In this document: piece by piece, positions 4,601 to 26,521 of the stretch
Layout: each line of letters starts with the position of its first letter
Position numbering within the stretch: position 1 is the first letter of the stretch
DNA from: Candidatus Omnitrophota bacterium
GTDB lineage: Bacteria > Omnitrophota > Gorgyraeia > Zapsychrales > JANLHA01
Reading direction: 5' to 3'
Assembly: GCA_020632555.1 (NCBI GenBank)
Contig: JACKFI010000010.1
Span: forward strand, 1 to 60,419
DNA length: 60,419 nucleotides
Notes under the pieces: model-generated
Database searches by the model: none
Seen by the model: the letters and a program-made list of their open reading frames with translations, nothing else
What the model was told of the DNA's origin: nothing
Program-made: the position numbers and the translations under genes

Positions 4601-7051
4601 AAAAAGAAGTTGGATTTTGTTTAAATCATTAAGATGCAGGGTTGGATATTTTTTTAATAAATCTTGAAATAAAATTGTATATTCTGTCCATTGACCGTAT
4701 TCGGCTGTTTTTTTCATCCAGATTTCGGCCTTGGTGTTATCGGTGGCGTGTTGATCGTGGTCATAAAGTTGAATCGCGAGATTATTGTCCATTTTATTGA
4801 TGGATTGGGAGTTAATCTGCAAGGAAAGCCGGTCATTGAGCTGTGGGTTTAAATCGACATGCCAATAGTCTTGAGAAGCGCAGGACGAACTGAATTGACA
4901 GCGGCGTTCTTGTGACATTAACAGGGCGGAAAACCAGACGGATTCTGCATTGATGCTCAGTTTGTAGGAATGCTGTCCTTCATAAACCGGTTCTCCTGCT
5001 TGCGAATAGTGAGCGTCTCCACCTGACCAGAGTAAACCCGGATAGCTGGATGGTGGATTATCAATGGGTGTTAATTCAAAACTTTGATATTGACGGTCGT
5101 TAGATGTGATTTCAATATCATCAAAGTCATAAAGAGCAGAGTGATAATTGACAAACTCAATTTGTGTCACGTGACTCAAATTGAAGTTCGATGGGAGTTG
5201 GGAAAATAACACGGACAGTTGAGTCCATTGCTGAGGTTGTGCTTTTTGTGTTGTCCAAACTTCAAAACCAGAAGCATAAGAGCGGTCATCAAAGAATTTG
5301 ACGGCGACATTGTTGGGTCCTACTGATGGGTGAGGATAAATCCAAAACGTTATCCGGTCATTTCGCAAAGCATCAAAGTCGGCATATCCCAGCGCATTGC
5401 TGGGCTTAATTCTGACACCGCCCCAATTGCCGCCATTGGGGGTTTGCCGGCAGGCGCGAGAGCCTTGGTGAACTAATTCTTGCGAAACATCGGCTGAGGA
5501 ACCATTGATTCCTTCGCAATAATTTCCGATAGTTCCATTCTTTTCTTCAAAATTCTGAAAGATAAAACCATGTGGGTTGACCAAGCCTTTGATGTCTTGT
5601 TGGGTCAAAGCGATATTATAAATTCTCACGTCATCTAGTAAGCCTTTAAAGTCAAGGAATGGAGCGCCGGTTGCTTTTCCCAGCAGTAAGTCTCCGCTTG
5701 TCAGAGGCGTATAACCGGTTAAATTGTTGTTTTGTGCCGCTAACTGTCCGTCTAAATATAATTTTGCGCCGATGGTTTGATCAAAGGTTATTGCCAAATG
5801 ATGCCATTCATTCAAGTTTTGGTCGGCGATGCTAATAACTTTTTTGTCGCGATTGTAATCACAAAGGCCGCCGATGATATTAACGCCGGTTCCTTTGCCG
5901 CCCCATTGAAAGCCGCCGATGTTTATGCCCATTTGAACACCATCACCATATTGGCAGACATAATTGTTGGGAAAATTATCTCGCCAGCCTAAGAGCAAAC
6001 TTTGTACGGGATGAGCGGCTTTATACCAAGCTGCCAAAGTGAATTTTCCACCTGCACCAACGTCTAAAGATTTTGTGCTGCCTGCGGCATTTCTTGGGAT
6101 GAAAATATAATCGTCTATTCCGTCAAATTCCATTGCGCCACCCATTTTGCCTTGCGCTGTAAAGATCGGCCCGTTGGGTTGGATAGACCCATTGTTTTGA
6201 TTGCCGCTATTATCAAAAATAATTCCGTTTTCCGGCGCATTGTCAAACGAGTAATAGGCAACCAATGGGGATGACGAAGTTGTTGGGCCGGTTAATGCCA
6301 AGATTTCTTGTTCAGATAAAGCACGATTATAAATTCGGATTTCATCCAAAAGACCTTTAAAGTCTAAGAATGGAGTGCTTCTTGATTTTCCGATTAGCAA
6401 ATCGCCGGATGTCAATGGGCTATATCCGTTGAGATTGGGTTTTTCAGCGACCAAATGGCCATCTAAATATAATTTTGCCCCGGCATTGTGGTCATAGGTT
6501 AATGCTAAGTGATGCCATTCGTTGAAGTTTTGGTCGGGGACGCTGATAACTTTTTTGTCGCGATTGTAATCACAAAGGCCGCCGATGATGTTAACGCCGG
6601 TTCCCTTGCCCGACCACTGAAACCCATTGATATTAACGCCCATTTGTACGCCATCGCCGTATTGACATGCCGACGCATTGGGAAAGTTGTCTCTCCAGCC
6701 GAGGATTAAACTTTGGATGGGATGTGTGACTTTGTACCAAGCGGCCAGTGTGAAAGCTCCTCCCTTGGCAACATCCAGAGATGCCGCACCATTGGCATTG
6801 GTTCGTGGAACGAAAATATAATCATCAGCCCCGTCAAATTCTAAGGCGCCCCCTTGTTTGCCATCGGTTTTAAAAACAGGACCGTTGATTTGAATGGCTC
6901 CATTATTGGCATTGCCGCTGGCATCAAGAATAATGCCGTTTTGCGGCGCATTGTCAAAGGGGAAATACAGAACCAGTCCATCATCTGCGTAAAGTGTTGA
7001 ACATGAAAGAATGAGTAATGCTCCTAAAATGAACGAAATCGATTTCTTCAT
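1670..7051 (-). CDS. giant secreted multidomain glycoside hydrolase: 2x LamG, 2x CBM-like beta-sandwich, 2x FN3-like, GH5 catalytic domain, PKD-like and Ig-like C-terminus
   Basis: Signal peptide MKKSISFILGALLILSC. Two 237-aa LamG_3-type repeats end in GLLDEIRIYNRALSEQEI and GLLDDVRIYNIALTQQDI. GH5 hallmarks are present: NLGNYLLLEPWM, GFNFIRLPIYY, LLDLHGAPG, YDLLNEP (acid/base) and LIGEFNG (nucleophile). Also has a Ca-binding-like DYDNDGLSDEVD, a PKD-like ILDGSKSADPDQDPLSFRW and a C-terminal Ig/HYR-like segment. Confidence 0.85.
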   Translation of the reverse strand: MKKSISFILGALLILSCSTLYADDGLVLYFPFDNAPQNGIILDASGNANNGAIQINGPVFKTDGKQGGALEFDGADDYIFVPRTNANGAASLDVAKGGAFTLAAWYKVTHPIQSLILGWRDNFPNASACQYGDGVQMGVNINGFQWSGKGTGVNIIGGLCDYNRDKKVISVPDQNFNEWHHLALTYDHNAGAKLYLDGHLVAEKPNLNGYSPLTSGDLLIGKSRSTPFLDFKGLLDEIRIYNRALSEQEILALTGPTTSSSPLVAYYSFDNAPENGIIFDNSGNQNNGSIQPNGPIFTAQGKMGGAMEFDGIDDYIFIPRNAAGSTKSLDVGAGGKFTLAAWYKAAHPVQSLLLGWRDNFPNNYVCQYGDGVQMGINIGGFQWGGKGTGVNIIGGLCDYNRDKKVISIADQNLNEWHHLAITFDQTIGAKLYLDGQLAAQNNNLTGYTPLTSGDLLLGKATGAPFLDFKGLLDDVRIYNIALTQQDIKGLVNPHGFIFQNFEEKNGTIGNYCEGINGSSADVSQELVHQGSRACRQTPNGGNWGGVRIKPSNALGYADFDALRNDRITFWIYPHPSVGPNNVAVKFFDDRSYASGFEVWTTQKAQPQQWTQLSVLFSQLPSNFNLSHVTQIEFVNYHSALYDFDDIEITSNDRQYQSFELTPIDNPPSSYPGLLWSGGDAHYSQAGEPVYEGQHSYKLSINAESVWFSALLMSQERRCQFSSSCASQDYWHVDLNPQLNDRLSLQINSQSINKMDNNLAIQLYDHDQHATDNTKAEIWMKKTAEYGQWTEYTILFQDLLKKYPTLHLNDLNKIQLLFYWPGNYYIDDIRATRATSSIDKDVLPSGTVSWTKQTDAGQYELQESSTGPHGPWTTVYHGPETTWTLNHFMPSWLRVRWQTAVNPQGPAAYISQWSDVVAYQTPPILIKHSRLMQGSLEWSAHSLATQYKVEHADHRNGTWTPIYTGPQKTISLSPSDLGKWYRVSAVGPKDTSALSPALLYDPNGFVQAAGTNLREQQGVGDIVQLKGVNLGNYLLLEPWMMGETDEFTKGRNDPEAFKGKYYDDWTIRKYLDNNAQHTLDVYQQAYIKNNDLDNIMRMGFNFIRLPIYYRDICDLSDNGLWTCGNNFNFATIDRIVEACADRGIYVLLDLHGAPGAQGPEFHTGRSSYQQPAPGFKHQLFNPANPTYRQRTQELWEKIAQHYFNNTTVVGYDLLNEPTGFEAYSNVGDFSLLHGIYTDLYSTIRNTVGDNHHVIVMEGAWNWDSLPNPQTKGWDNVMYQFHYYCWQPKAGETPIAGETCYGYDPGRYQGITLSDVTASHIAFINKKVSDSRQQIDNVPVLIGEFNGFDIKDVWAYYLTQFNAQKYNWSLWSYKTYASGNWGLFNQSYYDEDLPDFENDNPSNLERKLQKYDTATHHAPNQTLIQTITENLNRTDYDNDGLSDEVDVNPAIYSADFNDHRSVVPTTGTILNRGDQYLSITDDPDPNQGVTISAAASGGSNPAYVSVCSGSATYTLTAGDILNVTCGSVSTQVISGPIEVTFISKINTTATAVLQTKDKIIFYPDTLTYINTGTNPISIIFKGTLTTILPGKTAHLNHAPIANAGMNQKVQCHNPRGSRVILDGSKSADPDQDPLSFRWFGPNGTISTPTQRLILPLGKHQFTLTVKDPYGAEDSDKIKVKIIDTIAPGLKVEITPHSLWPPNNKMVKVTPSITVTDVCDANPKVELESIVMIDNKETTIFDPKHPIKTKNIIIDNNGQILLKAQNPKRVYIFRYTATDRSGNKQKTHTQIRVSPH
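5561..6982 (-). repeat. in-frame 711-bp tandem duplication encoding the two LamG domains
   Basis: Protein repeats at aa 24-260 and 261-497 look roughly 70 percent identical by eye. At the DNA level a 42-nt block (aacttttttgtcgcgattgtaatcacaaaggccgccgatgat) is identical at 5837..5878 and 6548..6589, an offset of exactly 711 bp. Confidence 0.9.
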
Positions 7052-7103
7052 GCGTCTTTTCTCCGATTGTTTTGCTGCAAGTTAAGGTTAGGGGTACGTA
7101 ACA

Positions 7104-7131
7104 TAAGACAAACACGGGCGCAAAATCTTAC
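7104..7131 (-). promoter_or_regulatory. candidate ECF-type promoter of the giant GH5 gene (GTAAGA-N16-GTCTTA)
   Basis: The minus strand reads TTGTAAGATTT-tgcgcccgtg-TTTGTCTTATGT in the 96-bp CHAT/GH5 intergenic region, about 53 nt upstream of the ATG. The same motif with the same spacing occurs at 11238..11265. Confidence 0.5.
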
Positions 7132-7147
7132 AAAATATTTTTGTTGA

Positions 7148-9130
7148 TCATTGAGCATGGTCATTTAAGGTATCGGTTAATTGTTTATGAAGAGTTTGGG
7201 CTTGGGAGGCAAAATGACTGTTGGCGTAGCGGCTCAGAGCCAAATTTTGAATAAAAAAATCATATTTTCGCAAGGTGAAAAGCTTTAAATCCTTCCCGTG
7301 GTCATCGGTATCTTTAATAGCTATTAAGTAAGACTTGATTTTTAGGAGCATTGCTTCTGCTTTAATAAAATCCAAATTATTCAGGGCGTATAATTGGGCT
7401 AGATCAATGGATGTGATGATCAGAGAAAAATAATCTGATTCTTGTTTTGATTTTATTGAGGAGAGTGATTCCATGGCTTTTTCATAATCGAGTATGGCGC
7501 TGTGATATTCTTTTCGCCAGCGATTCACACCGGCGGATGCTTGTAAGGCATGTGCCGCTAGACGATGATCTTGAATGTTGTCAGCATATTGCCAGCAGGC
7601 ATGATAGCAATTTAATATCTTAAAATAAGAATCGGGTATTGATACTTGAGATTCCTGGATGGTGGACTCTCTTGGGGTAAAGATTAGGCGCTCAAGCAAT
7701 ATTTCGTTTGATTTGTCCGCGAGCGTGCAGAAACTTTGTGCCAGGAGTTTGGGATTGTTGGTTTTTTGGGCTTGCGCAAGGTGTTGTTTTAACGATGTTA
7801 TTTCTAAAGAATCATCTGGCGATGGGATGGTTAATTGTGTCAGGTGATTTTGTTTATTTGCAGGATAGACTTGTGTGGTTAGTTTTTGAGTTGAGGTAAA
7901 ATTGTCAACCAAGGTTATCGAATGAGGCCGGCGAATATTTTTAGATTTCAATAAGATGAATCCTGTGAGCAACACAATTCCTAACAGTCCGATTATGAGT
8001 AAAAGAATATTCTTTGTGGTGATCTTGCTCCAAGCCGATTTCTTTAAAGAAGATTTTAATCCTCTGGGAAATGGCGAATATTTGGGATCGCCGTAGAGAA
8101 CGTAACCAGCCCAGACGATATTTTCTTCGCCAAATTCTTTCATTGCTTTAAGTCTGGCTTGGCGCAAAGCCTCTCCAATGGCAGCTCCCTTTTGGATGTA
8201 TTTGTAAAATTCGCTGGCGATGATAAGCCCAACAGAATCCGGAATTTCCCAGAGTGTTCCTACATAATGGCGGATGCCAGCAGTGAGGAAAGCATGAACG
8301 AGCCCAAAACATTTTTGTTCATAATCGTCACTAATATTTACGGAAGCAATATGCGCGGATTGGCAGGAATTTAGAAAAATAAATAATGGAAAGGCAGATC
8401 CTCCCTGCATGTTCTGAATTTCCTTGGGAGAAAATAGGCCGTCGGATAGTCGACAGCCTCCTAAGGATTGTTGGTTCTCGATTGGATCGGTGTGTCCGGC
8501 AAAATGGACAAAATCATAATCGCGGATGTTGCGCGTTACGTAATCAACAGTGATTTCTCCGGTTTTAGTCGACACAGCCAGGATTTCCCGGTTGCAATCC
8601 AGATGTTCACGAATCAGTTGAATTTCCTTTCGTGCGCCGGGTAGATCACCGGTCGCATCAGCCAGCAGTAACATTTTTAGGGGAAATCGGGGTTGACGTT
8701 GAGCTTGATCGATTAATGGTTGTGTTGTGATGACGCGGCGCCCTACATTGAATGCTAAACAGAGAAAGTTTTCCCCGTTAAAAAGCAGTTCCCAGGGAAT
8801 AAAAACCAGTGGTTCATCAAGTCGGATCACCAGATTTTCACAGGTGGTTTTTTTTATTTGATCTTTGACTCGTCTTGTGAGCAGGCGATCATAAAGAATG
8901 TGACAGATTTGCTTTAATTCTTGGAGTAATCCAGAAGATAATCGTCCTAAGGTATTGGACTTGTTTAAGAGGAGCCGGACTTCGCAGCAAAGATTTTCAA
9001 TTTCTTTGAAATTAAAAGAAATTTCTTCTGATTGATAAAAGGGAGTATTTTCATCAGAAATGCTGATGATCAGCATATTTTGTTTGCTGGAAATATCCAG
9101 AAATAAGGATGTTGAAGGGGTTTTTATCAT
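7148..9130 (-). CDS. membrane-anchored CHAT-domain (caspase-like) protease with C-terminal helical-repeat domain
   Basis: CHAT hallmarks are IPWELL, the His motif FVHFAGH (H213) and the Cys motif FIFLNSCQSA (C256). A single TM helix ILLLIIGLLGIVLLTGFILL spans about aa 375-394. The following roughly 265 aa are helical and TPR-like. There is no signal peptide. The start overlaps the upstream stop (TAATG). Confidence 0.8.
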   Translation of the reverse strand: MIKTPSTSLFLDISSKQNMLIISISDENTPFYQSEEISFNFKEIENLCCEVRLLLNKSNTLGRLSSGLLQELKQICHILYDRLLTRRVKDQIKKTTCENLVIRLDEPLVFIPWELLFNGENFLCLAFNVGRRVITTQPLIDQAQRQPRFPLKMLLLADATGDLPGARKEIQLIREHLDCNREILAVSTKTGEITVDYVTRNIRDYDFVHFAGHTDPIENQQSLGGCRLSDGLFSPKEIQNMQGGSAFPLFIFLNSCQSAHIASVNISDDYEQKCFGLVHAFLTAGIRHYVGTLWEIPDSVGLIIASEFYKYIQKGAAIGEALRQARLKAMKEFGEENIVWAGYVLYGDPKYSPFPRGLKSSLKKSAWSKITTKNILLLIIGLLGIVLLTGFILLKSKNIRRPHSITLVDNFTSTQKLTTQVYPANKQNHLTQLTIPSPDDSLEITSLKQHLAQAQKTNNPKLLAQSFCTLADKSNEILLERLIFTPRESTIQESQVSIPDSYFKILNCYHACWQYADNIQDHRLAAHALQASAGVNRWRKEYHSAILDYEKAMESLSSIKSKQESDYFSLIITSIDLAQLYALNNLDFIKAEAMLLKIKSYLIAIKDTDDHGKDLKLFTLRKYDFFIQNLALSRYANSHFASQAQTLHKQLTDTLNDHAQ

Positions 9131-9789
9131 TATTCTTGATACAGTTCTAAGCTAATTCTGGCAATTGGATGATGCGTCGCGGTGATGTCGACAACATACC
9201 GTCCATCGCGCATGTTTTCAAAGTTGGTTTTGCCTTTATCGGTGATATGGGATTCTAACTCCATATCGTTTTCCAAAAGAGTGATGCGAAAATCATTGAC
9301 GGGGGTATGTGTTTTGAGATCTTGCGCGCAAATGACAATTCGGTTTGTTGAATTTTGGGCACGTTCGATTTCCACTTGAATACCAACCGCGCTAAAATCT
9401 TTCTTGATCAGAATAGTTTTGGGGTTCTGGGCAGTCTGACCTCGCAAAGGTTGTGCATAAGACAGGATCGGATTAACAAAAACACCATCGGATTTGAACA
9501 TTTTAACTGCGTCTTTGGTAAAGTGAACCACCAAACTCCAAACGCGTGTTCCAAATGGTTGATGGACCAGGTTTTTGGCGTTTTGAATCACATGTTTTGG
9601 CACAGTTGGCAGATTTTCAGGTGTAATAAGTTTTGCGATCTCTTTTTGAATTCGAACTTCTTCTTGTAGGGCAAGATCATCTTTGATCAAATGGGCAATT
9701 GCTTTTTGTTCTTTGACGGACAATAATCCTTCCGCAAAATATCCGAGCAATTCATCTTGATTCTTATTCCAACACAATTTCTTAGTCAT
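9130..9789 (-). CDS. soluble anti-sigma-factor-like protein (hypothetical)
   Basis: Sits immediately after the ECF sigma gene. The ATG at 9789 is preceded by GAGGG with 5-6 nt spacing and overlaps the sigma stop (ATGACTAA); the longest ORF would start at 9834. The N-terminus (CWNKNQDELLGYFAEGLLSVKEQKAIAHL) resembles a ZAS-type anti-sigma helix but lacks the CxxC. No TM helix. The C-terminus is beta-rich (GRYVVDI, CarboxypepD_reg-like). Confidence 0.4.
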   Translation of the reverse strand: MTKKLCWNKNQDELLGYFAEGLLSVKEQKAIAHLIKDDLALQEEVRIQKEIAKLITPENLPTVPKHVIQNAKNLVHQPFGTRVWSLVVHFTKDAVKMFKSDGVFVNPILSYAQPLRGQTAQNPKTILIKKDFSAVGIQVEIERAQNSTNRIVICAQDLKTHTPVNDFRITLLENDMELESHITDKGKTNFENMRDGRYVVDITATHHPIARISLELYQE

Positions 9790-10402
9790 GATTTCCCTCA
9801 TTGCTGATTGGGTTAAGCTGTTGGATATCAGCATAATTTCTTAATTTATTTAAAACTCGATTTTTTCGGACATAAAGGGTATCAACGGAAATGAGAAATT
9901 TATCTGATATTTCCTGGGCAGACAAATGATCAAAATAGCACATTTCCAGAATCTTTCGTTCGTCGGTCGACAATTGTGCTAATAAAGCTTTAAGCTGTTC
10001 AGCGGTGTCGATTCTTTCTTGTTCACTTTTGGGACAGGTTATTTCCATGTCTTGGATCAAGCGGGTGTAGGGACCGTTTTCCATGAGAACATCATCGATT
10101 CCGATATATTTATTGCTTTTCTTTAAATAATTAATGGTATGACAAACAGCTATTCTCCGCAGATAGGCCAATAGACAGGGTTTGTTGTCGCCTTTGAATT
10201 GTTTTAATCCTTTGTCCAGAAGAATAACAAAGACATCCTGACACAATTCGTCGGTATCATTCGAATTTATGCGGCGTCCATACCCATGCGCGGTACGCAG
10301 AATGCAATGATAAATCCAGCGGGAATAGTCATCGACGAATGTATCCCATGCGATTTTGTTGTTTGAAAGACATTGTTTGATTAATTCTGATGTTTGATCC
10401 AT
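9782..10402 (-). CDS. ECF-type RNA polymerase sigma-70 family factor
   Basis: Region 2 (ELCQDVFVILLDKGLKQF...AYLRRIAVCHTINYLKK) and the region 4.2 HTH (LSAQEISDKFLISVDTLYVRKNRVLNKLR) are present. At 206 aa it has no region 1 or 3. Confidence 0.85.
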   Translation of the reverse strand: MDQTSELIKQCLSNNKIAWDTFVDDYSRWIYHCILRTAHGYGRRINSNDTDELCQDVFVILLDKGLKQFKGDNKPCLLAYLRRIAVCHTINYLKKSNKYIGIDDVLMENGPYTRLIQDMEITCPKSEQERIDTAEQLKALLAQLSTDERKILEMCYFDHLSAQEISDKFLISVDTLYVRKNRVLNKLRNYADIQQLNPISNEGNHD

Positions 10403-10407
10403 AAGAT

Positions 10408-11166
10408 TTATTCTCGGTGATTTGTGAATGCGGTGGCTTTTAACTGGATAAGGTCTAAAGCGTATTCACCTTTTTCATCAAAGATTGAAACACAATTCTT
10501 TTGGTTTACGGAGTCATTATTATGTGAGCAAATCATGAATTTTTGCTTACATAAACATTCTTTCTCTTGTTGGCGGGAATTTCCGGACGCCAGGAGAATA
10601 TCATCATAATAATAGGTTCCGTCCCAGTAATTGAAAAATTCAATTTTAGTCACGTGTTTGAGATCAAAATCTTGCGGTAAATCGTTGAAATAAATTTCTA
10701 AGCGGGTCCATTCTCTGTATTTGGCGCGTTGATTTTCTTTTGTCCAGATGCCGACGCCAGTATCTTGATACTGCCCTTGATCGAAGAATTTGAGCATAAC
10801 GGTGTGGTCGCCCACCTGTGAGGGATCAGACCAGATCCAGAATGATATTCGGTCATAACAGTATTCGATGAAATTCATATTGAAGCTTTGTGTTGCAGAA
10901 ATAATTGCTGTGCCGGCGTGAACCTTGGGACCTTGCGGAACGGTTACCGCCCAGGAATAGGTTCCGCTGTGCACCGGTTCTCCGGGGGCTGACCGTTGGA
11001 CAACCGCTTCGTTAAAGCCCCAGCCATATTCTATTGGCAATGAGTCGCGATTGTCCCGATGAGGGGTCCCATTATTATTTTCAAAATTCTGGTATATTGT
11101 TTCGGAAAAACAGCTAGCTGACAGTATTTGGAAAAAAAATAGAATAGTACTTATTAAAACACGCAT
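10408..11166 (-). CDS. secreted CBM-like beta-sandwich protein, paralogous to two modules of the giant GH5 protein
   Basis: Signal peptide MRVLISTILFFFQILSASC. Shares an ordered motif set with giant-protein aa ~498-650 and ~655-830: FENNNGT / GEPVHSG.YSW / RISFWIW / VMLKFFD / W.......W / DLPQDFDLKHVTKIEFFNYWDGTYYYDDI. The stop is 5 nt before the sigma gene start. Confidence 0.6.
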   Translation of the reverse strand: MRVLISTILFFFQILSASCFSETIYQNFENNNGTPHRDNRDSLPIEYGWGFNEAVVQRSAPGEPVHSGTYSWAVTVPQGPKVHAGTAIISATQSFNMNFIEYCYDRISFWIWSDPSQVGDHTVMLKFFDQGQYQDTGVGIWTKENQRAKYREWTRLEIYFNDLPQDFDLKHVTKIEFFNYWDGTYYYDDILLASGNSRQQEKECLCKQKFMICSHNNDSVNQKNCVSIFDEKGEYALDLIQLKATAFTNHRE

Positions 11167-11237
11167 AGGGTTTATCTTAAAATAGTATTTCTGTTAACAG
11201 ATCTTTTGGTCGTAAGTATATTAGTGTATTTGCTACA

Positions 11238-11265
11238 TTAGACAAAATTGTTGGGGAAATCTTAC
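11238..11265 (-). promoter_or_regulatory. candidate ECF-type (autoregulatory) promoter of the beta-sandwich/sigma/anti-sigma/CHAT operon (GTAAGA-N16-GTCTAA)
   Basis: The minus strand reads TTGTAAGATTT-ccccaacaat-TTTGTCTAATGT, about 72 nt upstream of the ATG at 11166. It matches the motif at 7104..7131 in both half-sites and in spacing. Confidence 0.5.
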
Positions 11266-11364
11266 AAGTATTTTTTTATCAAAAATTCTTGAGTTTATTT
11301 GTTTAGGGTGAGGCGCCTCACAATGTTGGTGATTATAAAGATTTTTAAGCTCAAAGGCAATGGC

Positions 11365-11380
11365 AAAGATTGCTACAATT
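11365..11380. repeat. 16-bp direct repeat flanking the IS, left copy (AAAGATTGCTACAATT)
   Basis: Perfect copy of 12869..12884, directly abutting the IS left end. Confidence 0.85.
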
Positions 11381-12868
11381 TGGGAATGATACCATTGATC
11401 CTTACCCCCTGATCCCTGCGGAGGCGACGAAAATTTTATGCATCACAGACTCAGTTTTTCAAACCATCAAACAGCAATATCTGGCATTTTGCCAAGGTCT
11501 CAGGACACGTCCCAAAATAAAATCTTTCGCTACAGGTCAATTACGAAAGAAATATTCACTAAAAAATCAACCCATGGCCCAATCTCAACATTTTTCGGCC
11601 TACGAGCCCAGCACAGCCATCACCGTCAATGAATGTGATTACCGCCGTTGGTGCCGCGTTGCCGAATGGTTTAACCAATACGGACCTGATGCCGAATATT
11701 AAAAAAAATCTGTTGATCAAATAGAAATGGACACATAATGGCTCCAAGAATCCGTCGCAGGATTAGAAAGGAGTCCAATAACTTATGTGTCCGTATAAAT
11801 ATTATCATGTTATGAGACAAAGCAAAGATAAAAAACAGTGGCGTTACCAGATGGTTCAAAAGGCTCTGGAGATCGGTATCAAGCCTACAGCCAGACTTTT
11901 TGCAACCTTCCCATCGGTGGTACGCAAATGGGTCAAACGCTTCGAGGTCGAAGGTTATGCCGGCCTGGAAGATCGCTCTCACAAACCCCACTACTGCCCC
12001 GGCACCACACCAGAATCTATGAAAAAATTCATCGTCAATCTAAAAAGCAAATACAAGCGTTTGGGTGCAGAACATATCCGGGACTTAGAAGGTTTAACTT
12101 GCGCCCCCAAGACCATGCGCAAAATATGGAAAGAGGCCGGCATCCCCTCGAGAAAACGACCCAAAAAACATGTCACAAAGAACAACCTGCGTGCTGTAAA
12201 AATGCTCTTTGAACTCTTCGAGCAATCCATGGAGGACACCAAAGACCTCATGGATATTCCCGAATACTTCCTCCAAGCTAAATTGCTTAATCTGCCCAAA
12301 GTTCAATACACCTTCCGGGAAGTCTCCTGCGGCATTCTTTTCACAGGCTTTGCCAATAATCTCTCGCTAACACATTCGCAACTATTTGCCGTCTATATTA
12401 ACCACTTCCTCAAGAAATTTAACGCCCTACCGGAATCAGCCATGCGACAAACTGATAACGGCAGCGAATTTATCGGCTCATGGAATGCTAAACAATCTTC
12501 TGCCTATACCAAAACCATTGAATCCATCCCAGGCCAATGGCATAACACCATTTTCCCCGGCGCACATCGCATGCAATCTGACGTCGAGACGATTCACAAT
12601 CTCATGGAGATGGAATTCTTTGAGATTGAACAATTCAAGAATAGGGCGGACTTCTTTAACAAAGCCACGTCCTATCAATTATTCTTCAACCTGCATCGCA
12701 CAAACTCTTACAAAGAACACAAAACACCTTGGCAACTGGCTCAAGAAAAGAAACCAGACTTGGACAAGCGTTTGCTTATGGTTCCTCCGGTCGATCTCGA
12801 TAAACTTCTGAGCTGGAAAATATCTCTTACTCAATCAAAGGGGGGTAACGATCACTTGACCGTTCCCT
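11381..12868 (+). mobile_element. insertion sequence, rve/DDE transposase type (IS481-like; subfamily uncertain), 1488 bp
   Basis: Imperfect terminal inverted repeats: left end tGGGAATGATACCATTGATCCTTACCCCC against the reverse complement of the right end aGGGAACGGTCAAGTGATCGTTACCCCC (about 22 of 28 positions). It is bracketed by a perfect 16-bp direct repeat and carries one transposase ORF. Confidence 0.75.
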
Positions 12869-12870
12869 AA
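11785..12870 (+). CDS. DDE (rve) transposase, IS481-like
   Basis: N-terminal HTH plus AGLEDRSHKPHYCP (IS481-type DRSxxPH motif). The rve core has QTDNGSEF and SDVETIHNLME (the E of the DDE triad). The stop codon TAA (12868-12870) spans the IS/flank junction. Confidence 0.8.
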   Translation: MCPYKYYHVMRQSKDKKQWRYQMVQKALEIGIKPTARLFATFPSVVRKWVKRFEVEGYAGLEDRSHKPHYCPGTTPESMKKFIVNLKSKYKRLGAEHIRDLEGLTCAPKTMRKIWKEAGIPSRKRPKKHVTKNNLRAVKMLFELFEQSMEDTKDLMDIPEYFLQAKLLNLPKVQYTFREVSCGILFTGFANNLSLTHSQLFAVYINHFLKKFNALPESAMRQTDNGSEFIGSWNAKQSSAYTKTIESIPGQWHNTIFPGAHRMQSDVETIHNLMEMEFFEIEQFKNRADFFNKATSYQLFFNLHRTNSYKEHKTPWQLAQEKKPDLDKRLLMVPPVDLDKLLSWKISLTQSKGGNDHLTVP

Positions 12871-12884
12871 AGATTGCTACAATT
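12869..12884. repeat. 16-bp direct repeat flanking the IS, right copy
   Basis: AAAGATTGCTACAATT, identical to 11365..11380. Confidence 0.85.
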
Positions 12885-17252: not shown

Positions 17253-19328
17253 TTAATTTCTTCTTGAGTTAGGCTGCCGGTATAAAAAACCGAGTATACA
17301 AAATGCAACGGCCATTGTTATTAAAACAAAAACATATATCCCCTGTCCGCCTGGGGGTTGATAGCGAAATTGAACAATATTCTCCCCTGCTGGGAGGTGG
17401 ATTCCTTTAAAGGCACCATGAGCTCGTGTAATTTTGGTCTCTTTGCCATTTATAAATGCCTTCCAAAAGATAGAATACGCGTCATGATAAATTAAGAATT
17501 TCTCGGAAGAAAAGTTTGTTTGGAATTTTAATGAATTGACATCAAAATGTAAGATTTTAAATTCCTTGATATTTTGTGTTATTTTGAGAGGCGTCTCCTC
17601 TTTAATGCCTCCTGCCGGCTCAGAGTTGTAAATTATAATTTTGTTTTTGATGTATTCGTCTTTCTGTAACGATGGGGCATTGTAAAAATCAAAAACATAG
17701 CTGTTGAGAAAATCCGGTTGAAAATTTACTTTACCTGAGCTGTCCTGAAAGTCGCCTAAATGAACAAACATTGAATACAGCGAATCCCCAAATTGAGTTG
17801 GAATATCGTGGCCGGGTCGCAAATATTCAAAGCGTGGCTCATTATGGGTTTGCGGTAATTGATAAATAGCGGATGATGTATTATTGCGATAGCAAATAAA
17901 AACATAAATTGGTTCTATAACAATAAGTACTGTTAAGAATAGGAGTAATAACTGAGGTTTTTTTGTAAAGAATCTTAAGGTCAAGAGGATAAAGAATAAT
18001 AAACTTAATAGGACTGTTGTATATGTTGCTGGGATGATATTGCCTTGAGTCTGCAGAAACAGCAAGATGAGTATGTGGCTGAAGATAATAAATAGAAAGA
18101 ATAATGCTTTATGCTTTGTGCTTGAGAGTTGTTCTATTGAGCTCTTGAGTTGGGCGACGGTGAACAAAATGAATAAAGGTATTAAGAAAGCACTATAAAA
18201 GAATAAATTTCGAAAATATTTAAATATGAAAATATGCTCGAAAAGTATTTTATAAAGCGGTGTTGCTCCCCCTAAAGAAATAAGAAATATGGTGCAAAAG
18301 GTACTAAAAATAATCAATCGTTTGCGGTCCATGATTGTGAACATAGCGAGAAATAGAACAATGAAACTAAATGAGGAAACATAAATAAAGCTGTCATCAT
18401 TATAATTGAATTTATCTAGGTGTGAAAAAAGTCTCCCGCCTGCAAAACGCTCTCCAAAGGAGCCATCGAAGGCTACTTCTTTAAATTGCATTTCAGCTCG
18501 ATTTTGGCATTGTTCTGTAATTGAACAAGCATGCCGAGCGGGAGAAAGGATTTCATCGGTGTTATTGACTGTTTTAAATAAGAGTGTTGGAATCAATGCG
18601 ATTAAAATAAACAAAGCGCCTAACGAAGTAATAACTGGATGCCGTCTTATAAAATACAAAGTATTCAATAGTTTCTTGAGAAACAAGCTCTGCAATATGA
18701 GCATGGTGCATATTAAAAATATACAGAATAGGCATATGAAATAAAAAGGGATGTAGGAAAAAGCAAGGATCATTAAGCAACAGATCATTCCCCAAAATTG
18801 CTTGATTTTCAACTTATTAAGAAATTTTAGAAAGAATATGAAGAACCAAAGGGCTGGAACAAATAACAGAAGAATGAAAACTTGGTTAAAAATCATAACT
18901 GGCAAGCCGGAAAACATTAAAAAACAAACAGCAATTAAGGCATAACTATCGTTGTGTAGGATGATCTTATTTAATTGAAAGAAACCGAAAATTCCGAGTA
19001 AAAGATAGGATGTTAGGTATATGAGATATAAGTGATAATAATTAATGCCGACAAAATGCAGCAGGTATATGGGGAAAATAAGGATGTTCAGGACACCCGT
19101 TACCGCTAAATGAATATGAGGGCGACCTAAATAGACATATGGTTCCCATAGAGGGATTACTCCGTTGAATAAATTATTAAAGAAATATTTAAAAGTTCCA
19201 TAAGTGGAATAGGAATCAATGTTGACTACGATAGTGTTGTTTAGAAAGTCGCGAAAGATGAATAGCCATACAGCGTAGAGTACGACAATGAGGGAGTAAA
19301 CAAAAGGTTTGTTGAGTTTAGGGTGCAT
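17253..19328 (-). CDS. YfhO-like GT-C fold membrane glycosyltransferase (putative)
   Basis: 691 aa with more than 10 TM helices. The N-terminal loop ...NIDSYSTYGTFKYFFNNLFNGVIPLWEPYVYLGRP and the C-terminal beta domain plus final TM (GENIVQFRYQPPGG...) match my recollection of the YfhO architecture. Confidence 0.5.
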   Translation of the reverse strand: MHPKLNKPFVYSLIVVLYAVWLFIFRDFLNNTIVVNIDSYSTYGTFKYFFNNLFNGVIPLWEPYVYLGRPHIHLAVTGVLNILIFPIYLLHFVGINYYHLYLIYLTSYLLLGIFGFFQLNKIILHNDSYALIAVCFLMFSGLPVMIFNQVFILLLFVPALWFFIFFLKFLNKLKIKQFWGMICCLMILAFSYIPFYFICLFCIFLICTMLILQSLFLKKLLNTLYFIRRHPVITSLGALFILIALIPTLLFKTVNNTDEILSPARHACSITEQCQNRAEMQFKEVAFDGSFGERFAGGRLFSHLDKFNYNDDSFIYVSSFSFIVLFLAMFTIMDRKRLIIFSTFCTIFLISLGGATPLYKILFEHIFIFKYFRNLFFYSAFLIPLFILFTVAQLKSSIEQLSSTKHKALFFLFIIFSHILILLFLQTQGNIIPATYTTVLLSLLFFILLTLRFFTKKPQLLLLFLTVLIVIEPIYVFICYRNNTSSAIYQLPQTHNEPRFEYLRPGHDIPTQFGDSLYSMFVHLGDFQDSSGKVNFQPDFLNSYVFDFYNAPSLQKDEYIKNKIIIYNSEPAGGIKEETPLKITQNIKEFKILHFDVNSLKFQTNFSSEKFLIYHDAYSIFWKAFINGKETKITRAHGAFKGIHLPAGENIVQFRYQPPGGQGIYVFVLITMAVAFCILGFLYRQPNSRRN

Positions 19329-19329
19329 T

Positions 19330-19980
19330 TTAAAGGTTTATTTTTGTTTTTTTCCCTGTGCAAAGTAAGTAGGTGTGGTGGATTTGTAAAGTTTTTTGTG
19401 TGAAAATTATAAACTCTTTTTGAATCATTGACATAAGCATTTCTTGGCTTTTGGGATAGCTACCTCTGTCCATGGACCATAGAAATCTTCCCTTCCAGGA
19501 TTGTGGAAGCCAAATAGCATCGGCAAAAAAGAAAATTCCTGTATCTTTTAATACACGTGAACTTTCTGAAATTAACATAATAAGCTGATTTTCTGTTAGA
19601 TGATGCGACATCATGGTGCATTGAATAATATCTACGCTTTGGTTTTTTAACGGAATATTTGTCGCATCGGCCAGCAGAGGAATTCCATGAACTATAGATT
19701 TGTGAGTAAATCCAATGAGTTTTTGGATGTCATTATCCAGACACATATAGAGTTTGACATCTTCCCAGATGTTTTGGTAAATTCCGGTTCCACCACCGAG
19801 ATCAATAATAATCTTTGATTTAGTTTGTGATTTAGCCATTTCCGCAAGATTTTTATATATGATTTTGGAACCAACAAGTTTCTGAACAGAATCATAAAAG
19901 GCAGGATGTTCCATGAATTTGTGCAGGATATTCTTGATGAGATTAGGTATCATAATTTTTAAAGAGTTAAGTTGTTTCAA
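19330..19980 (-). CDS. class I SAM-dependent methyltransferase
   Basis: SAM motif I IIIDLGGGTGIY. 216 aa. Overlaps the aminotransferase gene's 3' end. Confidence 0.7.
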   Translation of the reverse strand: MKQLNSLKIMIPNLIKNILHKFMEHPAFYDSVQKLVGSKIIYKNLAEMAKSQTKSKIIIDLGGGTGIYQNIWEDVKLYMCLDNDIQKLIGFTHKSIVHGIPLLADATNIPLKNQSVDIIQCTMMSHHLTENQLIMLISESSRVLKDTGIFFFADAIWLPQSWKGRFLWSMDRGSYPKSQEMLMSMIQKEFIIFTQKTLQIHHTYLLCTGKKTKINL

Positions 19981-21097
19981 CGGTTTTCAAAACAGAATCA
20001 ATGATGTAGTCCGTTTCAATGGATGTGAGTTTTGGATATAACGGAAGCGTAATGGTGCGATTTCCAATAGATTCCGCAATGGGAAAGTCATTCTCTTTGA
20101 AATTAAGATTTTCTCGGTAATATTTTAATAAATGAATGACGCGGAAATTAACAGCGACACCAATACCTTTATCTTGAAGCCCCTTTAAAATGAGATCTCT
20201 CTTGTCTGCTGGTACCCAAATTGTAAAAATATGTCGAGCGGATTTGGAATTGGCAAGAACTTTTGGAAAATCTAAGTTTGGTTGATTGCCGAAAGCTTGT
20301 TCATATTTCTCGCAAATGGCTTGTTTGGCTTTCCAATGATCTTCAATTTTCTTAAGTTGAGGAATTAAAAGGGCGGCTTGGATATCAAACATATTTGCTT
20401 TATAACCTAAAACGCTCATATCCCAGTGTCGGTATAATCCTGTGTAGCGATCTATTGCAGATCGATCCATGCCATGCAACCGAAGTAACAAAAGTTTTTC
20501 ATAAAGTTCCTGATGATTTGTTGCGATCATCCCTCCTTCCCCGGAAGCAATATTTTTTGTAGCATAAAAACTAAATACAGCTGCATCACCTAATTGCCCC
20601 GGTTTAATTGAATCACGTGCTCCTTCAATACAATGTGCGCAGTCTTCAAGAATTTTAAGATTGTGTTTGTCTGCTATTTTACGCAATGATTTCATGTCGA
20701 CCATTTGGCCGTATAAATGCACGGGAATGATTGCTTTTGTTTGTAAGGTGATTGCTTGTTCAACAAGATTTATATCTAAATTTCCTGTTGTGGGGTCCAC
20801 GTCAACAAAAATTGGTTTAGCTCCGACTTGAAGAATAACATTGGCCGTGGCACAAAAGCTAAGAGGCGTAGTGATTATTTCATCTTCCGGGCCAATTCCC
20901 CAAGCTTTTAAAACCAAAAAAGCTCCCGTAGTCCATGATGTTACACCTGTAGCGTAGTTCGTCCCAAGATAAGTTCTAAAATCAGACTCAAATTGAGTTG
21001 TTTTGGGACCGGTGGTTAGAAAAATCGAATCCAAAGTTTCGAGCAGAGAATTTTTCTCTTCAGTACCAATATTATGTTTATAGAATTCGATTTTCAT
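19967..21097 (-). CDS. DegT/DnrJ/EryC1/StrS-family PLP-dependent sugar aminotransferase
   Basis: Conserved FSFYATKNIASGEGG (PLP lysine), HGMDR, and an N-terminal ...FESDFRTYLG. 376 aa. Confidence 0.85.
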   Translation of the reverse strand: MKIEFYKHNIGTEEKNSLLETLDSIFLTTGPKTTQFESDFRTYLGTNYATGVTSWTTGAFLVLKAWGIGPEDEIITTPLSFCATANVILQVGAKPIFVDVDPTTGNLDINLVEQAITLQTKAIIPVHLYGQMVDMKSLRKIADKHNLKILEDCAHCIEGARDSIKPGQLGDAAVFSFYATKNIASGEGGMIATNHQELYEKLLLLRLHGMDRSAIDRYTGLYRHWDMSVLGYKANMFDIQAALLIPQLKKIEDHWKAKQAICEKYEQAFGNQPNLDFPKVLANSKSARHIFTIWVPADKRDLILKGLQDKGIGVAVNFRVIHLLKYYRENLNFKENDFPIAESIGNRTITLPLYPKLTSIETDYIIDSVLKTVETT

Positions 21098-21115
21098 AGG
21101 TTATTTGATATCTTT

Positions 21116-22147
21116 TTAATGAAGCTCGATTTTTCCGGTTTTTGTTCGAATTTTGATATTTCTCATCCATTCAATTTTTTCCCACCATTTTTTATTATTT
21201 TTATACCAGGTAACGGTGGATTTAATGCCTTCTTGAAAAGATCGTCCGGGTTTTATGTTTAGAATTTCTTCCATTTTGTTAGTTGAAGAGATATGCACAT
21301 CTACCTGACCTGGTCGGTCTCCAATATGTTCAATCAAAGATAACGGTTTGCCTAGTGTTTTTAGAATGATTTTAGCTACATCAAGGACAGAAATAGATTC
21401 GCCGGAGCCAATGTTGAATACTTCTCCTCGTGTTTTTGAATTGGGAGCATGGATAATCGTATCTATTCTTTGGCAGGTATCTTGAACGTAAAGCCAATCT
21501 CTTTTAGCTTCTCCAGTACCGTGGATTGTTAAGGGTGCGTTATGTAATGCTGAAGTGATGAACCGGGGAACGACTTTTTCAAGGTGTTGGAATGGCCCAT
21601 AATTATTGAAAGGCCTGATAATTGTAGCTGGAATATCATATGTTTTCATAAATGAGTAAATCAAACGATCGGCTCCACATTTTGCGGCGGCGTAGGGACT
21701 ACAAGGATTCATAGGGTGATTCTCGTCCATGGGCTCATATTCGGCAGTTCCGTACACTTCGGATGTGGATATATGAATGAATTTTTTAACTTTTTTATAA
21801 TGCTTTAATACGGCAGTCGCCATCGCGTGGGTTCCCATGACATCAGTCTCAAAAAAGATTTTGTTATCAAAAATCGATCTCGCCACATGAGATTCTGCGG
21901 CAAAATGCACGACGATGTCAGATTTTCCAACTAAATTATCGACCAATTCGCCATTACAAACATTCCCATACCAAAATTCATAGCCGTTTTTTTGTTCTCT
22001 AATTTCTTTTGGTAAATTCTCGGGATTTCCTGCGTAGGTCAAATTGTCAAGAACGAGTATTCGGTCTTTAGGATATTTTTTACACCAAAGATTAACGAAA
22101 TTGCTGCCAATAAAACCAGCCCCACCAGTGATTAAAATTGTTTGCAT
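21116..22147 (-). CDS. rfbB: dTDP-glucose 4,6-dehydratase
   Basis: ILITGGAGFIGSNF, VLDNLTYAGN (RfbB signature), STSEVYG, SPYAAAKCGAD (YxxxK). 343 aa. Confidence 0.85.
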   Translation of the reverse strand: MQTILITGGAGFIGSNFVNLWCKKYPKDRILVLDNLTYAGNPENLPKEIREQKNGYEFWYGNVCNGELVDNLVGKSDIVVHFAAESHVARSIFDNKIFFETDVMGTHAMATAVLKHYKKVKKFIHISTSEVYGTAEYEPMDENHPMNPCSPYAAAKCGADRLIYSFMKTYDIPATIIRPFNNYGPFQHLEKVVPRFITSALHNAPLTIHGTGEAKRDWLYVQDTCQRIDTIIHAPNSKTRGEVFNIGSGESISVLDVAKIILKTLGKPLSLIEHIGDRPGQVDVHISSTNKMEEILNIKPGRSFQEGIKSTVTWYKNNKKWWEKIEWMRNIKIRTKTGKIELH

Positions 22148-22204
22148 GGAATATCTCCCAGATTTTGTGAATACATTAACATGTTAATAATGTGCGGAGT
22201 TCAT

Positions 22205-22969
22205 TCAGTGTTTCTTGATAATATAGGCTTGTTGAATCCCGAATCCTCCTCCAGACATTTTATTCTCAAGATCAAAGAAAACTTTATTCAAGGGATTAAC
22301 GAATCCTTTAATGTCCAGTAATTCTCGCAAAAAACGTGATCCTAAATAATAGATTGAAGAAAAGTCTTCAATTTGAAATGAAAGACCTTTGTTTTCTAAT
22401 AGCTTGTTTAAATTTTTCATTTTCATATAACGATTAAAACTTTGTTCTTTCATGGGTTCAAGCTCTTTAACGGCACGTAAGGCATTTAAAGTTTGTAGAG
22501 GTTCCTGAAATGCCTCAGAAAGAATTAATTTGCCTCCTGGTTTTGTGACGCGAAGACACTCTTCTATTGCTAAAGTTTGTTCTTCCCAATTTGGTAAATT
22601 GATGAGCATTCGTACGGAAAATACTACGTCGAAACAATTAGTATCAAATGGGAGGTTTCGTGAGTCGGCGGTCTGGAATCGAACGCTAGTAAGGTTTTTC
22701 TGAATTTTTAGACAATTAGCTTGCTCAATCATTTTTTCAGAAAAGTCTACCCCAAACATAGTCTTGATATTATGGCGAGAAAAAAGTTCAAGGGTTGCGT
22801 GACCATTGGCACAGCCTACGTCTAGAACTTGGTCTTGATTTTGAAGATATGGACCAATAGTCAGCAATTCGAGTTCAATCATATACTGATCTGCCCAGGA
22901 AGCTTCTGGGGAGGTGTGATATTTTTCAGCTTGACTCTGCCAATATTCTTTGACGAAATCTTTTTTCAT
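22205..22969 (-). CDS. class I SAM-dependent methyltransferase
   Basis: Motif I VLDVGCANGHAT and post-I VDFSEKMI. 254 aa. Confidence 0.7.
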   Translation of the reverse strand: MKKDFVKEYWQSQAEKYHTSPEASWADQYMIELELLTIGPYLQNQDQVLDVGCANGHATLELFSRHNIKTMFGVDFSEKMIEQANCLKIQKNLTSVRFQTADSRNLPFDTNCFDVVFSVRMLINLPNWEEQTLAIEECLRVTKPGGKLILSEAFQEPLQTLNALRAVKELEPMKEQSFNRYMKMKNLNKLLENKGLSFQIEDFSSIYYLGSRFLRELLDIKGFVNPLNKVFFDLENKMSGGGFGIQQAYIIKKH

Positions 22970-23038
22970 AATAAAACCTTTAGTGAATGAGTTAATAGAT
23001 AGATTTAAGGATGTTTTTTCTAGTGAACATAACGCAGA

Positions 23039-23965
23039 TTATTTAATTTTTTTAATATCCTCAATAATATAGAGTGGCCGATGTTGGCTTTCGGCATAAT
23101 TGCGCCCAACGTATTCCCCTAAGATTCCTAAAAGGAGCATTTGTATGCCCCCCATAAATAATATTAAAACCATAATGGACGTCCATCCTGAGAATATGAC
23201 ACCGAAAGTGATTTTAAGGAAAATGAGATAAATGATTGCTAAAAAGCTGACCCCTGATATGAACGTTCCCAGAAGGCTGGCAAGTTGCAGCGGTTTTGAG
23301 GAAAAAGACGTAACGGTGTTGATTGCCAATTTGAATAATTTGAACCAAGAATATTTTGTTTCACCAGCATAGCGCTGACCATGGATAACCTCAATCCCAA
23401 CTTGTTTAAAACCGATGTAACTGATTAAACCGGTAATGAAGCGATCTCGTTCTCTGAGTTTGTTCAAATGATCAACCACCCGACGACTCATAATTCTAAA
23501 AATATGGCTATTAATTGGAACTTCTGTGCCAATAACTTTGTTAATAAAATAAATAAATAATTTTGATGTGAAAACCTTGAGAAAGGAGTGGCGGCGTTCT
23601 TTTCGAACTCCAAAGACAACATCAAACCCTTTTAGAAAATGGGAATAAAGCTTTTGAATTTCTTCTGGCTGGTCTTGGAGGTCGCCATCCATAAGAATGA
23701 CTGCGTCCCCGCTGGCGTAATCCATGCCAGCCGTAATGGCAATGTGATGACCAAAATTTCTGGAGAATTTTATTGCTTTGATATGGGGATCATTTTGGGA
23801 TAGTTCGGTCATAATTTCCCAAGAACGATCTTTGCTGCCATCATCAATCAAAAGAACTTCATAGTCGTCGATGGCTAATTGTAGCAAGGCGTTGGTTAAA
23901 CGACGATGAAGCTCGTTGAGGGTGCCTTCTTCATTGTATATTGGGATAACAATTGAAATTTTCAT
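23039..23965 (-). CDS. GT2 polyprenyl-phosphate glycosyltransferase (GtrB/ArnC/CsbB-like)
   Basis: ISIVIPIYNEEGTL, LIDDGSKDRS, MDGDLQD (DxD) and two C-terminal TM helices. I prefer the ATG at 23965 (MKISIV...); the ORF track's longer form starts with GTG at 23992. Confidence 0.8.
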   Translation of the reverse strand: MKISIVIPIYNEEGTLNELHRRLTNALLQLAIDDYEVLLIDDGSKDRSWEIMTELSQNDPHIKAIKFSRNFGHHIAITAGMDYASGDAVILMDGDLQDQPEEIQKLYSHFLKGFDVVFGVRKERRHSFLKVFTSKLFIYFINKVIGTEVPINSHIFRIMSRRVVDHLNKLRERDRFITGLISYIGFKQVGIEVIHGQRYAGETKYSWFKLFKLAINTVTSFSSKPLQLASLLGTFISGVSFLAIIYLIFLKITFGVIFSGWTSIMVLILFMGGIQMLLLGILGEYVGRNYAESQHRPLYIIEDIKKIK

Positions 23966-23975
23966 AAGTATAATA

Positions 23976-24809
23976 TTATGGTTTAATAACACGGGCTGCT
24001 ACTAAGCAACTACCTCCCAATAATAGCCTTTTTTTGTTTAAAATAAAATTGGTTTCTAATTTAAATATTTTGTTGACTAATGATTCTAGGAATTTATTTT
24101 TAATGGTATGATCGCGGGATAAATTCTGTTGAGCTGGTTTTTTTATGATATGAAGAATATAGGGTAGACTGCGAAATAAGAAAATAAAAATTGGTAAAAA
24201 TGAAAAGATGTACGTGTCGTAAACAATTTCAAAACCAGCTTCTTTAAGGAGTTTACGCAAATTGTTTAGTGTATATCTTCGAAAGTGCCCTGCGACTTTG
24301 TCTTCGTTAGACCATAGAAATTGATAAGCAGGAACCGTGAGATAAATCATGCCGTTAAACTCCAATAGATTCTTTATTAAAGTCAAGAACTTGATATCGT
24401 CTTCAATATGTTCTAATACGTCAAATACGCCAACTGCTGGCAATGAATTCTGAGGGATATTGGCTGAGTCTATTGTTGCGCATATCAGATGCTTTAGGCC
24501 TCGTTGTTTGGCGTTGAGAACGCCTTGTAATCCCGGTTCAATTAGCGCGGTGGTAAACCCCTGCTTTTCCAAAGCATGGGATACTTGTCCATTGCCACCG
24601 CCAATGTCAAATATCATTCCGTTGGGTGGAAAATTCTTGATGAGTTGAACAATCGCATTAGCCCGATGAGTAAACCAAAAACTCGAATCTTCAATTTGAA
24701 AATATTGGTTATTAGCCTCTGATGGGTACGATATCTTTGAATTATTTTCAACAAAGAATATTTTGTCATTTAGGGTTAAGTTTTTAGTAATTTCTTGCCA
24801 AGATGTCAT
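23976..24809 (-). CDS. class I SAM-dependent methyltransferase
   Basis: Motif I IFDIGGGNGQVS and VFDVLEHI. 277 aa. Confidence 0.7.
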   Translation of the reverse strand: MTSWQEITKNLTLNDKIFFVENNSKISYPSEANNQYFQIEDSSFWFTHRANAIVQLIKNFPPNGMIFDIGGGNGQVSHALEKQGFTTALIEPGLQGVLNAKQRGLKHLICATIDSANIPQNSLPAVGVFDVLEHIEDDIKFLTLIKNLLEFNGMIYLTVPAYQFLWSNEDKVAGHFRRYTLNNLRKLLKEAGFEIVYDTYIFSFLPIFIFLFRSLPYILHIIKKPAQQNLSRDHTIKNKFLESLVNKIFKLETNFILNKKRLLLGGSCLVAARVIKP

Positions 24810-24854
24810 TAGATAGTCTCAATCAAACTTAAAAGTAATATTAGAGAATTTATT

Positions 24855-26498: not shown

Positions 26499-26521
26499 AT
26501 CTATTTTATTGTTCGTTTAGT

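Follow-up and report, generated by a model that had tools for sequence, protein, structure and literature searches.

ECF-type promoters predicted before a sigma factor operon and before a neighbouring giant GH5 gene in Omnitrophota

The window, that is, the whole stretch of 60,419 bp of Candidatus Omnitrophota DNA analysed here, carries the same bipartite motif twice on its minus strand, once ahead of an operon which encodes an ECF-type sigma factor and once ahead of the giant gene of a secreted protein with a GH5 cellulase domain. Judging from the sequence, it is quite probable that both sites are promoters read by RNA polymerase with the ECF sigma factor of that operon, which we infer to be their reader. 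The case is well supported but ordinary, being that of a sigma factor which activates itself and a single target gene close by, and the regulatory principle is textbook ECF autoregulation with a small adjacent regulon and no new mechanism.

Omnitrophota are uncultivated and almost nothing is known of gene regulation there; no description of the present module or of its motif was found in the searchable literature. The locus supplies a testable promoter consensus, TTGTWAGATTT-N11-TTGTCT, together with a probable sigma factor, and this pair can be tested heterologously with no need to cultivate the host. It also marks a conserved module of five genes (CBM-like protein, ECF sigma factor, anti-sigma-like protein, CHAT protease and giant GH5 protein), which connects the control of a large secreted enzyme of glycan degradation with caspase-like proteolysis and bears on the host-dependent or predatory lifestyle proposed for Omnitrophota.

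Two copies of a bipartite motif

On the minus strand, positions 7134..7098 read tTTGTAAGATTTtgcgcccgtgTTTGTCTTATGTtac at the giant-gene site and positions 11268..11232 read cTTGTAAGATTTccccaacaatTTTGTCTAATGTagc at the operon site, and TTGTAAGATTT-N10-TTTGTCTWATGT is common to both (7133..7101 and 11267..11235, respectively). The first-pass annotation, made from the letters of the window, had described here an 11-nt upstream block identical at the two sites, a 12-nt downstream block with a single difference, and a spacer of equal length and unrelated sequence. The minus-strand reading confirms all of this: the upstream block is TTGTAAGATTT in either case, the downstream blocks (TTTGTCTTATGT vs TTTGTCTAATGT) differ by one base, and the spacers have 10 nt each and are unrelated in sequence. 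The distances given there also hold, with 71 nt from GTCTAA to the ATG of the first operon gene (11166), 52 nt from GTCTTA to the ATG of the giant gene (7051), upstream of which a GGAG is found, and a gap of 96 bp from the stop codon of the CHAT gene to the latter ATG, within which the second site lies. One copy is thus located before the first gene of the sigma operon, in the position expected for autoregulation, as had been pointed out. Transcription is predicted to start at about 11232-11230 from the operon promoter and at about 7098-7096 from the giant-gene promoter.

In the 60-kb window with its approximately 50 genes there is no third copy of the motif. Searching the 60,419 bp for TTGTAAGATTT-N10-TTTGTCTWATGT with up to three mismatches returned 7101-7133 (-) and 11235-11267 (-) only, in agreement with an earlier scan by eye, and the exact matches to the short form GTAAGA-N16-GTCT are the same two sites. 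A relaxed consensus with up to three mismatches added matches at the chance level only, with five found in the window against 5.1 expected. For TTGTAAGATTT-N10-TTTGTCTWATGT itself, 100 dinucleotide-preserving shuffles contained no match, and the chance expectation is therefore none.

The pair could in principle be a by-product, either a chance match or the remnant of the duplication that made the paralogous CBM-like domains of the locus, given that the first operon gene does have paralogues among the internal domains of the giant gene. However, the giant protein has these domains at residues 497-828, and not at the 5' end of its gene, and the spacer and the flanks are unrelated between the two sites. 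An alignment of the two upstream regions found no similarity beyond the two blocks, which means that they are not a duplicated segment. Together with the shuffles without matches and the conservation of blocks rather than flanks across lineages that is described below, these results make the probability of a by-product practically negligible, and we regard it as ruled out by the shuffles, the upstream-region alignment and the cross-species footprint.

Two other candidates were also rejected. A sigma-70 consensus scan of 6900-11500 (TTGACA-N16-18-TATAAT type) called neither motif site, and this, with two copies among about 50 genes, disposes of a housekeeping sigma-70 promoter. A general promoter of Omnitrophota was discarded on the same number of sites among the genes of the window.

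Genes of the operon and the giant gene

Read along the minus strand, the genes follow each other in the order CBM-like protein, sigma factor, putative anti-sigma factor, CHAT protease and, after the 96-bp gap, the giant gene (Table 1). The first four are 5 nt apart or overlapping and hence form one operon, in which the putative anti-sigma gene overlaps at its start with the sigma gene and at its end with the CHAT gene. No terminator-like site was found in the 96-bp gap, and read-through from the operon promoter can accordingly reach the giant gene.

Table 1. Genes and predicted promoter elements at the locus, in coordinates of the window
Feature	Coordinates	Strand	Remarks
CBM-like secreted protein, 252 aa, first operon gene	10408..11166	(-)	beta-sandwich, N-terminal hydrophobic segment
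ECF-type sigma factor, 206 aa	9782..10402	(-)	TIGR02937, Sigma70_r4_2
Putative soluble anti-sigma factor, 219-234 aa by start codon	9130..9834	(-)	position, weak profile matches
CHAT (caspase-like) protease, 660 aa	7148..9130	(-)	PF12770 6.4e-36
Giant secreted protein, 1793 aa	1670..7051	(-)	two LamG, two CBM-like, GH5 cellulase, PKD
-35 block TTGTAAGATTT, operon promoter (predicted)	11257..11267	(-)	core GTAAGA 11265..11260
-10 block TTTGTCTAATGT, operon promoter (predicted)	11235..11246	(-)	core GTCTAA 11243..11238
-35 block TTGTAAGATTT, giant-gene promoter (predicted)	7123..7133	(-)	core GTAAGA 7131..7126
-10 block TTTGTCTTATGT, giant-gene promoter (predicted)	7101..7112	(-)	core GTCTTA 7109..7104
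Sigma-70-like promoter TTGCCT-17-TATAAT (candidate)	11332..11360	(-)	about 65 nt upstream of ECF -35

The ECF type that had been assigned to the sigma gene product is upheld by its match to TIGR02937 (sigma70-ECF, NCBIfam) with 69.6 bits, over the cutoff of 42.9; Sigma70_r4_2 is matched at 1.4e-10, and the match in region 2 is weak. The protein of about 220 aa encoded next is a putative anti-sigma factor, a candidate by its position in the operon and by weak profile matches, namely an NCBIfam anti-sigmaE match with an E-value of 0.004 and, in the orthologues at the related loci L018, L019, L026 and L027, weak matches to zf-HC2. The window protein itself has no Pfam match and no TM segment. Its AF2 model is poor (pLDDT 61), with four helices at the N-terminus, and the fold search based on this poor model returned generic Ig-like sandwiches only.

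The CHAT protein, whose sequence shows the motifs HFAGH and LNSCQS, has its CHAT domain at the N-terminus, followed by one TM helix (about residues 375-393) and by a C-terminal part that is helical. No signal peptide was found in it, and the only TM helix comes after the CHAT domain, which is therefore probably cytoplasmic. In the giant protein, Laminin_G_3 (3.3e-43), Cellulase GH5 (8.2e-29) and PKD are recognized. Two of its domains in tandem, at residues 497-660 and 655-828, are paralogous to the 252-aa protein in BLASTP (E-values of 1e-23 and 8e-12, respectively). For the 252-aa protein a Pfam search gave no match, and no sequence link to CBM11 or to PDB sequences was found when such links were looked for. 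Its AF2 model (pLDDT 79) has CBM11, CBM8, CBM22 and CBM30 among the top PDB fold matches, the single best of which is the flagellar sheath protein FlaA1 with an E-value almost equal to that of CBM11; it is thus by predicted fold only that the protein is tied to CBMs, as resembling them.

Conservation of the motif across Omnitrophota

The order of CBM-like, sigma, anti-sigma-like, CHAT and GH5 genes recurs in many assemblies, and the related contigs carry the annotation Candidatus Omnitrophota. The loci for the conservation test were picked by protein homology, independently of the motif. It was found before the operon and/or the GH5 gene in the window and in L001, L003, L014, L016 (identical to L020), L029, L030 and L031, which gives 14 sites in an anchored alignment of eight assemblies including the window, with sigma identities from 90% down to 46%. 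Among these loci, the operon-proximal copy is present, besides the window, in L001, L003, L014, L016, L029 and L031. The check proposed by the first-pass annotation, namely whether the motif is kept in front of orthologous operons, thus has a positive outcome, for the GH5 genes as well.

The consensus of the 14 sites is the one given above. Their mean pairwise identity amounts to 94% in the core blocks, the values for spacer and flanks being 31% and 32%, respectively, and the spacer length is constant throughout (GTWAGA-N16-GTCT). The -35 element is TGTAAGA or TGTTAGA at every site, each position of TTGTCT is matched in at least 12 of the 14, and an A-rich tract lies upstream of the -35 block. 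The two blocks are consistently unlike each other (WAGATTT vs CTWWT), which makes the site asymmetric in the manner of a -35/-10 pair. The start codon follows the -10 core after 52 to 160 nt, a variation that would be expected for a promoter and not for a translation-linked element. The geometry GTWAGA-N16-GTCT, the position, the conservation and the asymmetry are all consistent with ECF-dependent promoters, which is how the pair had been interpreted from the beginning.

An element acting at the RNA level, such as a leader hairpin, a riboswitch or a processing site in a read-through transcript, would be favoured by the fact that any read-through transcript of the operon would include the giant-gene site. 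The operon-proximal copy, by contrast, lies upstream of any transcript predicted from its own promoter. No stable fold was obtained, the leaders having z-scores of +1.81 and -0.10 relative to shuffles; Rfam had no match in 6800-11800 at E<=1; and the 5-bp stem that can be drawn is without covariation support. Such an element is very improbable in our view, and it was rejected on the folding z-scores and the null result with Rfam.

That 5-bp stem corresponds to the complementarity between TAAGA and TCTTA, which are reverse complements at the giant-gene site, and it raises another reading, namely that the sites are operators of a DNA-binding regulator, bound either by a dimer on an imperfect TAAGA-N15-TCTTA dyad or by a protein on a direct TTGT-N18-TTGT repeat, since each block starts with TTGT and the two are about two helical turns apart. 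But full complementarity over the 5 bp is seen in only 6 of the 14 sites, and the changes in the others are not compensatory, examples being TAAGA/TCTAA at the operon sites of the window, L014 and L031, TTAGA/TCTTA before the giant gene of L016, and TTAGA/TCTCT at the operon site of L029. Repeated half-sites are contradicted by the consistent difference between the block consensuses. Furthermore, the sigma factor is the only transcription factor conserved in the neighbourhood, and outside the phylum, in an unrelated MAG of Eubacteriales, an ECF sigma gene has this motif upstream as well (see below). Taking these together, we consider an operator unlikely and keep to the promoter reading.

Beyond this group the motif is modified or lost. 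In L018/L019 and L027, whose sigma factors have about 28-34% identity, there is no site at the operon, and the GH5-proximal one alone is present; in L018 and L027 the latter is TGTTAGAT-N-CGTCTAAT with a 17-nt spacer, and by its sequence CGTCTAAT is an even more canonical candidate for an ECF -10 element. At the operon of L018/L019 and L027, the motif is replaced by sigma-70-like sequences after a terminator. L022 has diverged variants of the motif at both places, and the motif is absent from the upstream regions of L017, L021, L023, L026 and L028. With the motif missing at the operon in L018/L019 and L027 and altogether in this further clade, autoregulation through it is not family-wide.

Several smaller observations were made at these loci. 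The intrinsic-terminator hairpin upstream of the operon, AAGCCCTTCT...AGAAGGGCTTTTTT, is located at about 9880-9930 in L018/L019 and at about 7880-7920 in L027. Directly before this hairpin L018 has an orphan TGTAAGATT with no matching -10, which from its sequence may be a decayed autoregulatory site. In L017, L021, L023 and L028 a small protein, with Pfam CBM11 in L021 and L028, follows CHAT; in L026 this place is without such a gene. Upstream of their operons, L017 (about 9940-9990), L021 (about 2125-2165), L023 (about 1440-1480) and L028 (about 7930-7970) share another conserved sequence, ...AATTGCTT..N..TTTATAGTTTAAACTAC, which may be the promoter of this sister clade; in L026 neither the motif nor a sequence of the TTTATAGTTTAAACTAC type was found.

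Rarity of the motif and a case in Eubacteriales

In a scan of 596 Gb of species-representative genomes, the strict pattern TGTAAGATT-N11-TTTGTCTWAT matched in ten stretches. Two copies in one genome occur only in the related Omnitrophota MAG JANPFV01, where they are at both homologous places, and the other nine stretches are single matches in unrelated taxa, compared with about nine expected by chance from the information content of the pattern under the assumption of equal base frequencies. The motif is thus not frequent, which had been named as a point to be checked. As to the regulon of two members that had been proposed, it stands for the strict consensus only, and degenerate members may exist elsewhere in the genome.

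At eight of the nine single matches no ECF gene was found nearby, several of these matches being opposite to or inside ORFs, and in view of the chance expectation all eight were treated as chance. The ninth is in an uncultured Eubacteriales MAG (CAYJJU010000025.1, our L010), at 6719-6755 (+), and reads TTGTAAGATTT-N10-TTTGTCTAATAT. An intrinsic terminator precedes it, and the GAGGAGG ribosome-binding site of a gene for a SigM-like ECF sigma factor (6769-7263) follows. As chance would put a site in such a place only very rarely, this match is independent evidence for an ECF-type promoter. When this sigma factor was compared with that of the window, no similarity beyond the family level was found.

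The same case has a second side. With practically the same motif upstream of an unrelated SigM-like ECF gene, several ECF families can evidently use this type of promoter, and our view of the genome is limited to 60 kb; the sites might accordingly be genuine alternative-sigma promoters whose reader is another sigma factor, with its gene in some other part of the genome. Against this, the motif accompanies the sigma gene in eight assemblies, at the head of the operon and/or before GH5, and it degenerates or vanishes once the identity of the sigma factor falls below about 35%. We therefore find a reader encoded elsewhere improbable, and prefer the sigma factor of the operon.

Comparison with known systems

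Autoregulated operons of ECF sigma factors with a small regulon are known from RpoE of E. coli and from SigW, SigX and SigM of B. subtilis. The present locus is similar to them in having a sigma factor with regions 2 and 4 only, in an operon with a presumed anti-sigma factor, in the bipartite promoter (16-17 nt spacer, GTC-containing -10) before its own operon, and in a target gene preceded by the same motif. It differs in that the sigma gene is second, after that of a secreted CBM-like protein, in that the host is an uncultivated member of Omnitrophota, and in that the -35 element is GTWAGA rather than one of the GGAAC/TGAAAC 'AAC' type. The lack of an 'AAC' core is a counter-point to our reading; such a core is typical of many ECF groups and not universal. 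On the other side stand the 16-17 nt spacer, the -10 with its (C/T)GTC core, the copy before the sigma operon and the adjacent gene of an ECF sigma factor.

Coupling of ECF sigma factors with CHAT domains has been described in other contexts. In Myxococcus xanthus, the ECF sigma factor DdvS works with DdvA, a transmembrane anti-sigma factor whose single polypeptide unites a periplasmic TPR-CHAT domain with the TM helix and a zinc-binding anti-sigma domain (PMC11506125). Both systems have an ECF sigma factor genetically coupled to a caspase-like CHAT domain, with proteolytic release being proposed, and sigma-dependent promoters (predicted in our case) before the own gene and before neighbouring outputs. 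Unlike in DdvA, however, the anti-sigma-like protein here lacks a TM segment and has a gene of its own, the CHAT domain, which precedes the only TM helix, is probably located in the cytoplasm and not in the periplasm, and the output is a GH5 enzyme instead of CBASS/CRISPR.

In the type III-E Craspase, the TPR-CHAT protein Csx29 cleaves Csx30, which controls the ECF sigma factor RpoE (PMC10028731; bioRxiv 10.1101/2023.06.23.546230). Common to this system and ours is a cytoplasmic CHAT protease whose proposed action on a sigma-binding protein would modulate an ECF sigma factor. The CHAT protein here, in contrast, is membrane-anchored and lies beside glycan-binding and glycan-degrading genes, and among the called genes of the related loci no cas or CRISPR-associated families were found (no association with Cas7-11 or csx30/csx31). 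Finally, the genomic context of the ECF54 group contains conserved carboxypeptidase, subtilase and CHAT proteins, and the group is described as having no anti-sigma factor (review PMC8999054). The conserved ECF-CHAT neighbourhood and the proposed proteolytic regulation are shared, a likeness known from gene context only, whereas an anti-sigma-like gene is present in our operon.

Proposed mechanism

Under the promoter reading, TGTWAGATT would be the -35 element contacted by region 4 of the sigma factor, and TTGTCT(W)A, which lies 16 nt downstream of it, the -10 element contacted by region 2. From the site at 11267..11235, transcription would run through the genes of the CBM-like protein, the sigma factor, the putative anti-sigma factor and the CHAT protease, amounting to positive autoregulation, and the site at 7133..7101 would drive the giant LamG/CBM/GH5 gene as the output, which may additionally get read-through from the operon promoter. 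Once freed from its partner, the sigma factor would amplify its own module and turn on the glycan-degrading enzyme. By analogy with the systems compared above, it is probably the CHAT protease that inactivates the anti-sigma-like protein and thereby releases the sigma factor proteolytically.

A more far-reaching idea, which we put forward tentatively as possible rather than likely, is that the promoter pair is the output stage of an undescribed glycan-sensing switch found across Omnitrophota. Here the secreted CBM-like protein, being paralogous to the binding modules of the enzyme, would report the substrate; the cytoplasmic CHAT domain of the membrane-anchored protein would then cleave the soluble anti-sigma-like protein, and the freed sigma factor would use the unusual GTWAGA-type -35 to amplify the module and to switch on its output, that is, the giant GH5 enzyme or, in the sister clade, the CBM11 protein. 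If true, such a switch would be an unfused variant of the DdvA/Craspase logic with a cytoplasmic protease, and would serve the degradation of polysaccharides or of prey envelopes.

Neighbouring elements in the window

Besides the predicted ECF promoter, the operon is preceded by the sequence TTGCCT-17-TATAAT (Table 1), which is kept in the close relatives L014 and L031 and suggests a candidate basal promoter of the operon. Just upstream of its -35 hexamer ends an insertion of about 1.5 kb (approximately 11383-12879), which contains the ORF of a 361-aa IS481-like transposase (11785-12870, plus strand) with the domains HTH_32, HTH_28 and LZ_Tnp_IS481. The insertion is flanked by the direct repeat AATTGTAGCAATCTTT and is absent from the syntenic intergenic regions of L031 and L014.

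On the other side of the locus, the giant gene is followed on the minus strand, after 187 nt, by a gene for a retropepsin-like aspartyl protease whose N-terminus is lipoprotein-like (931-1482), and L014 too has a homologue after its giant gene. A terminator-like site separating the two genes of the window was not found, and they may thus share a transcription unit. Farther away, a possible cell-envelope or glycosylation island is seen at about 18000-30000, where the GC content is 0.34-0.37 against about 0.42 elsewhere in the window and where a run of same-strand genes includes one for a YfhO-like membrane protein.
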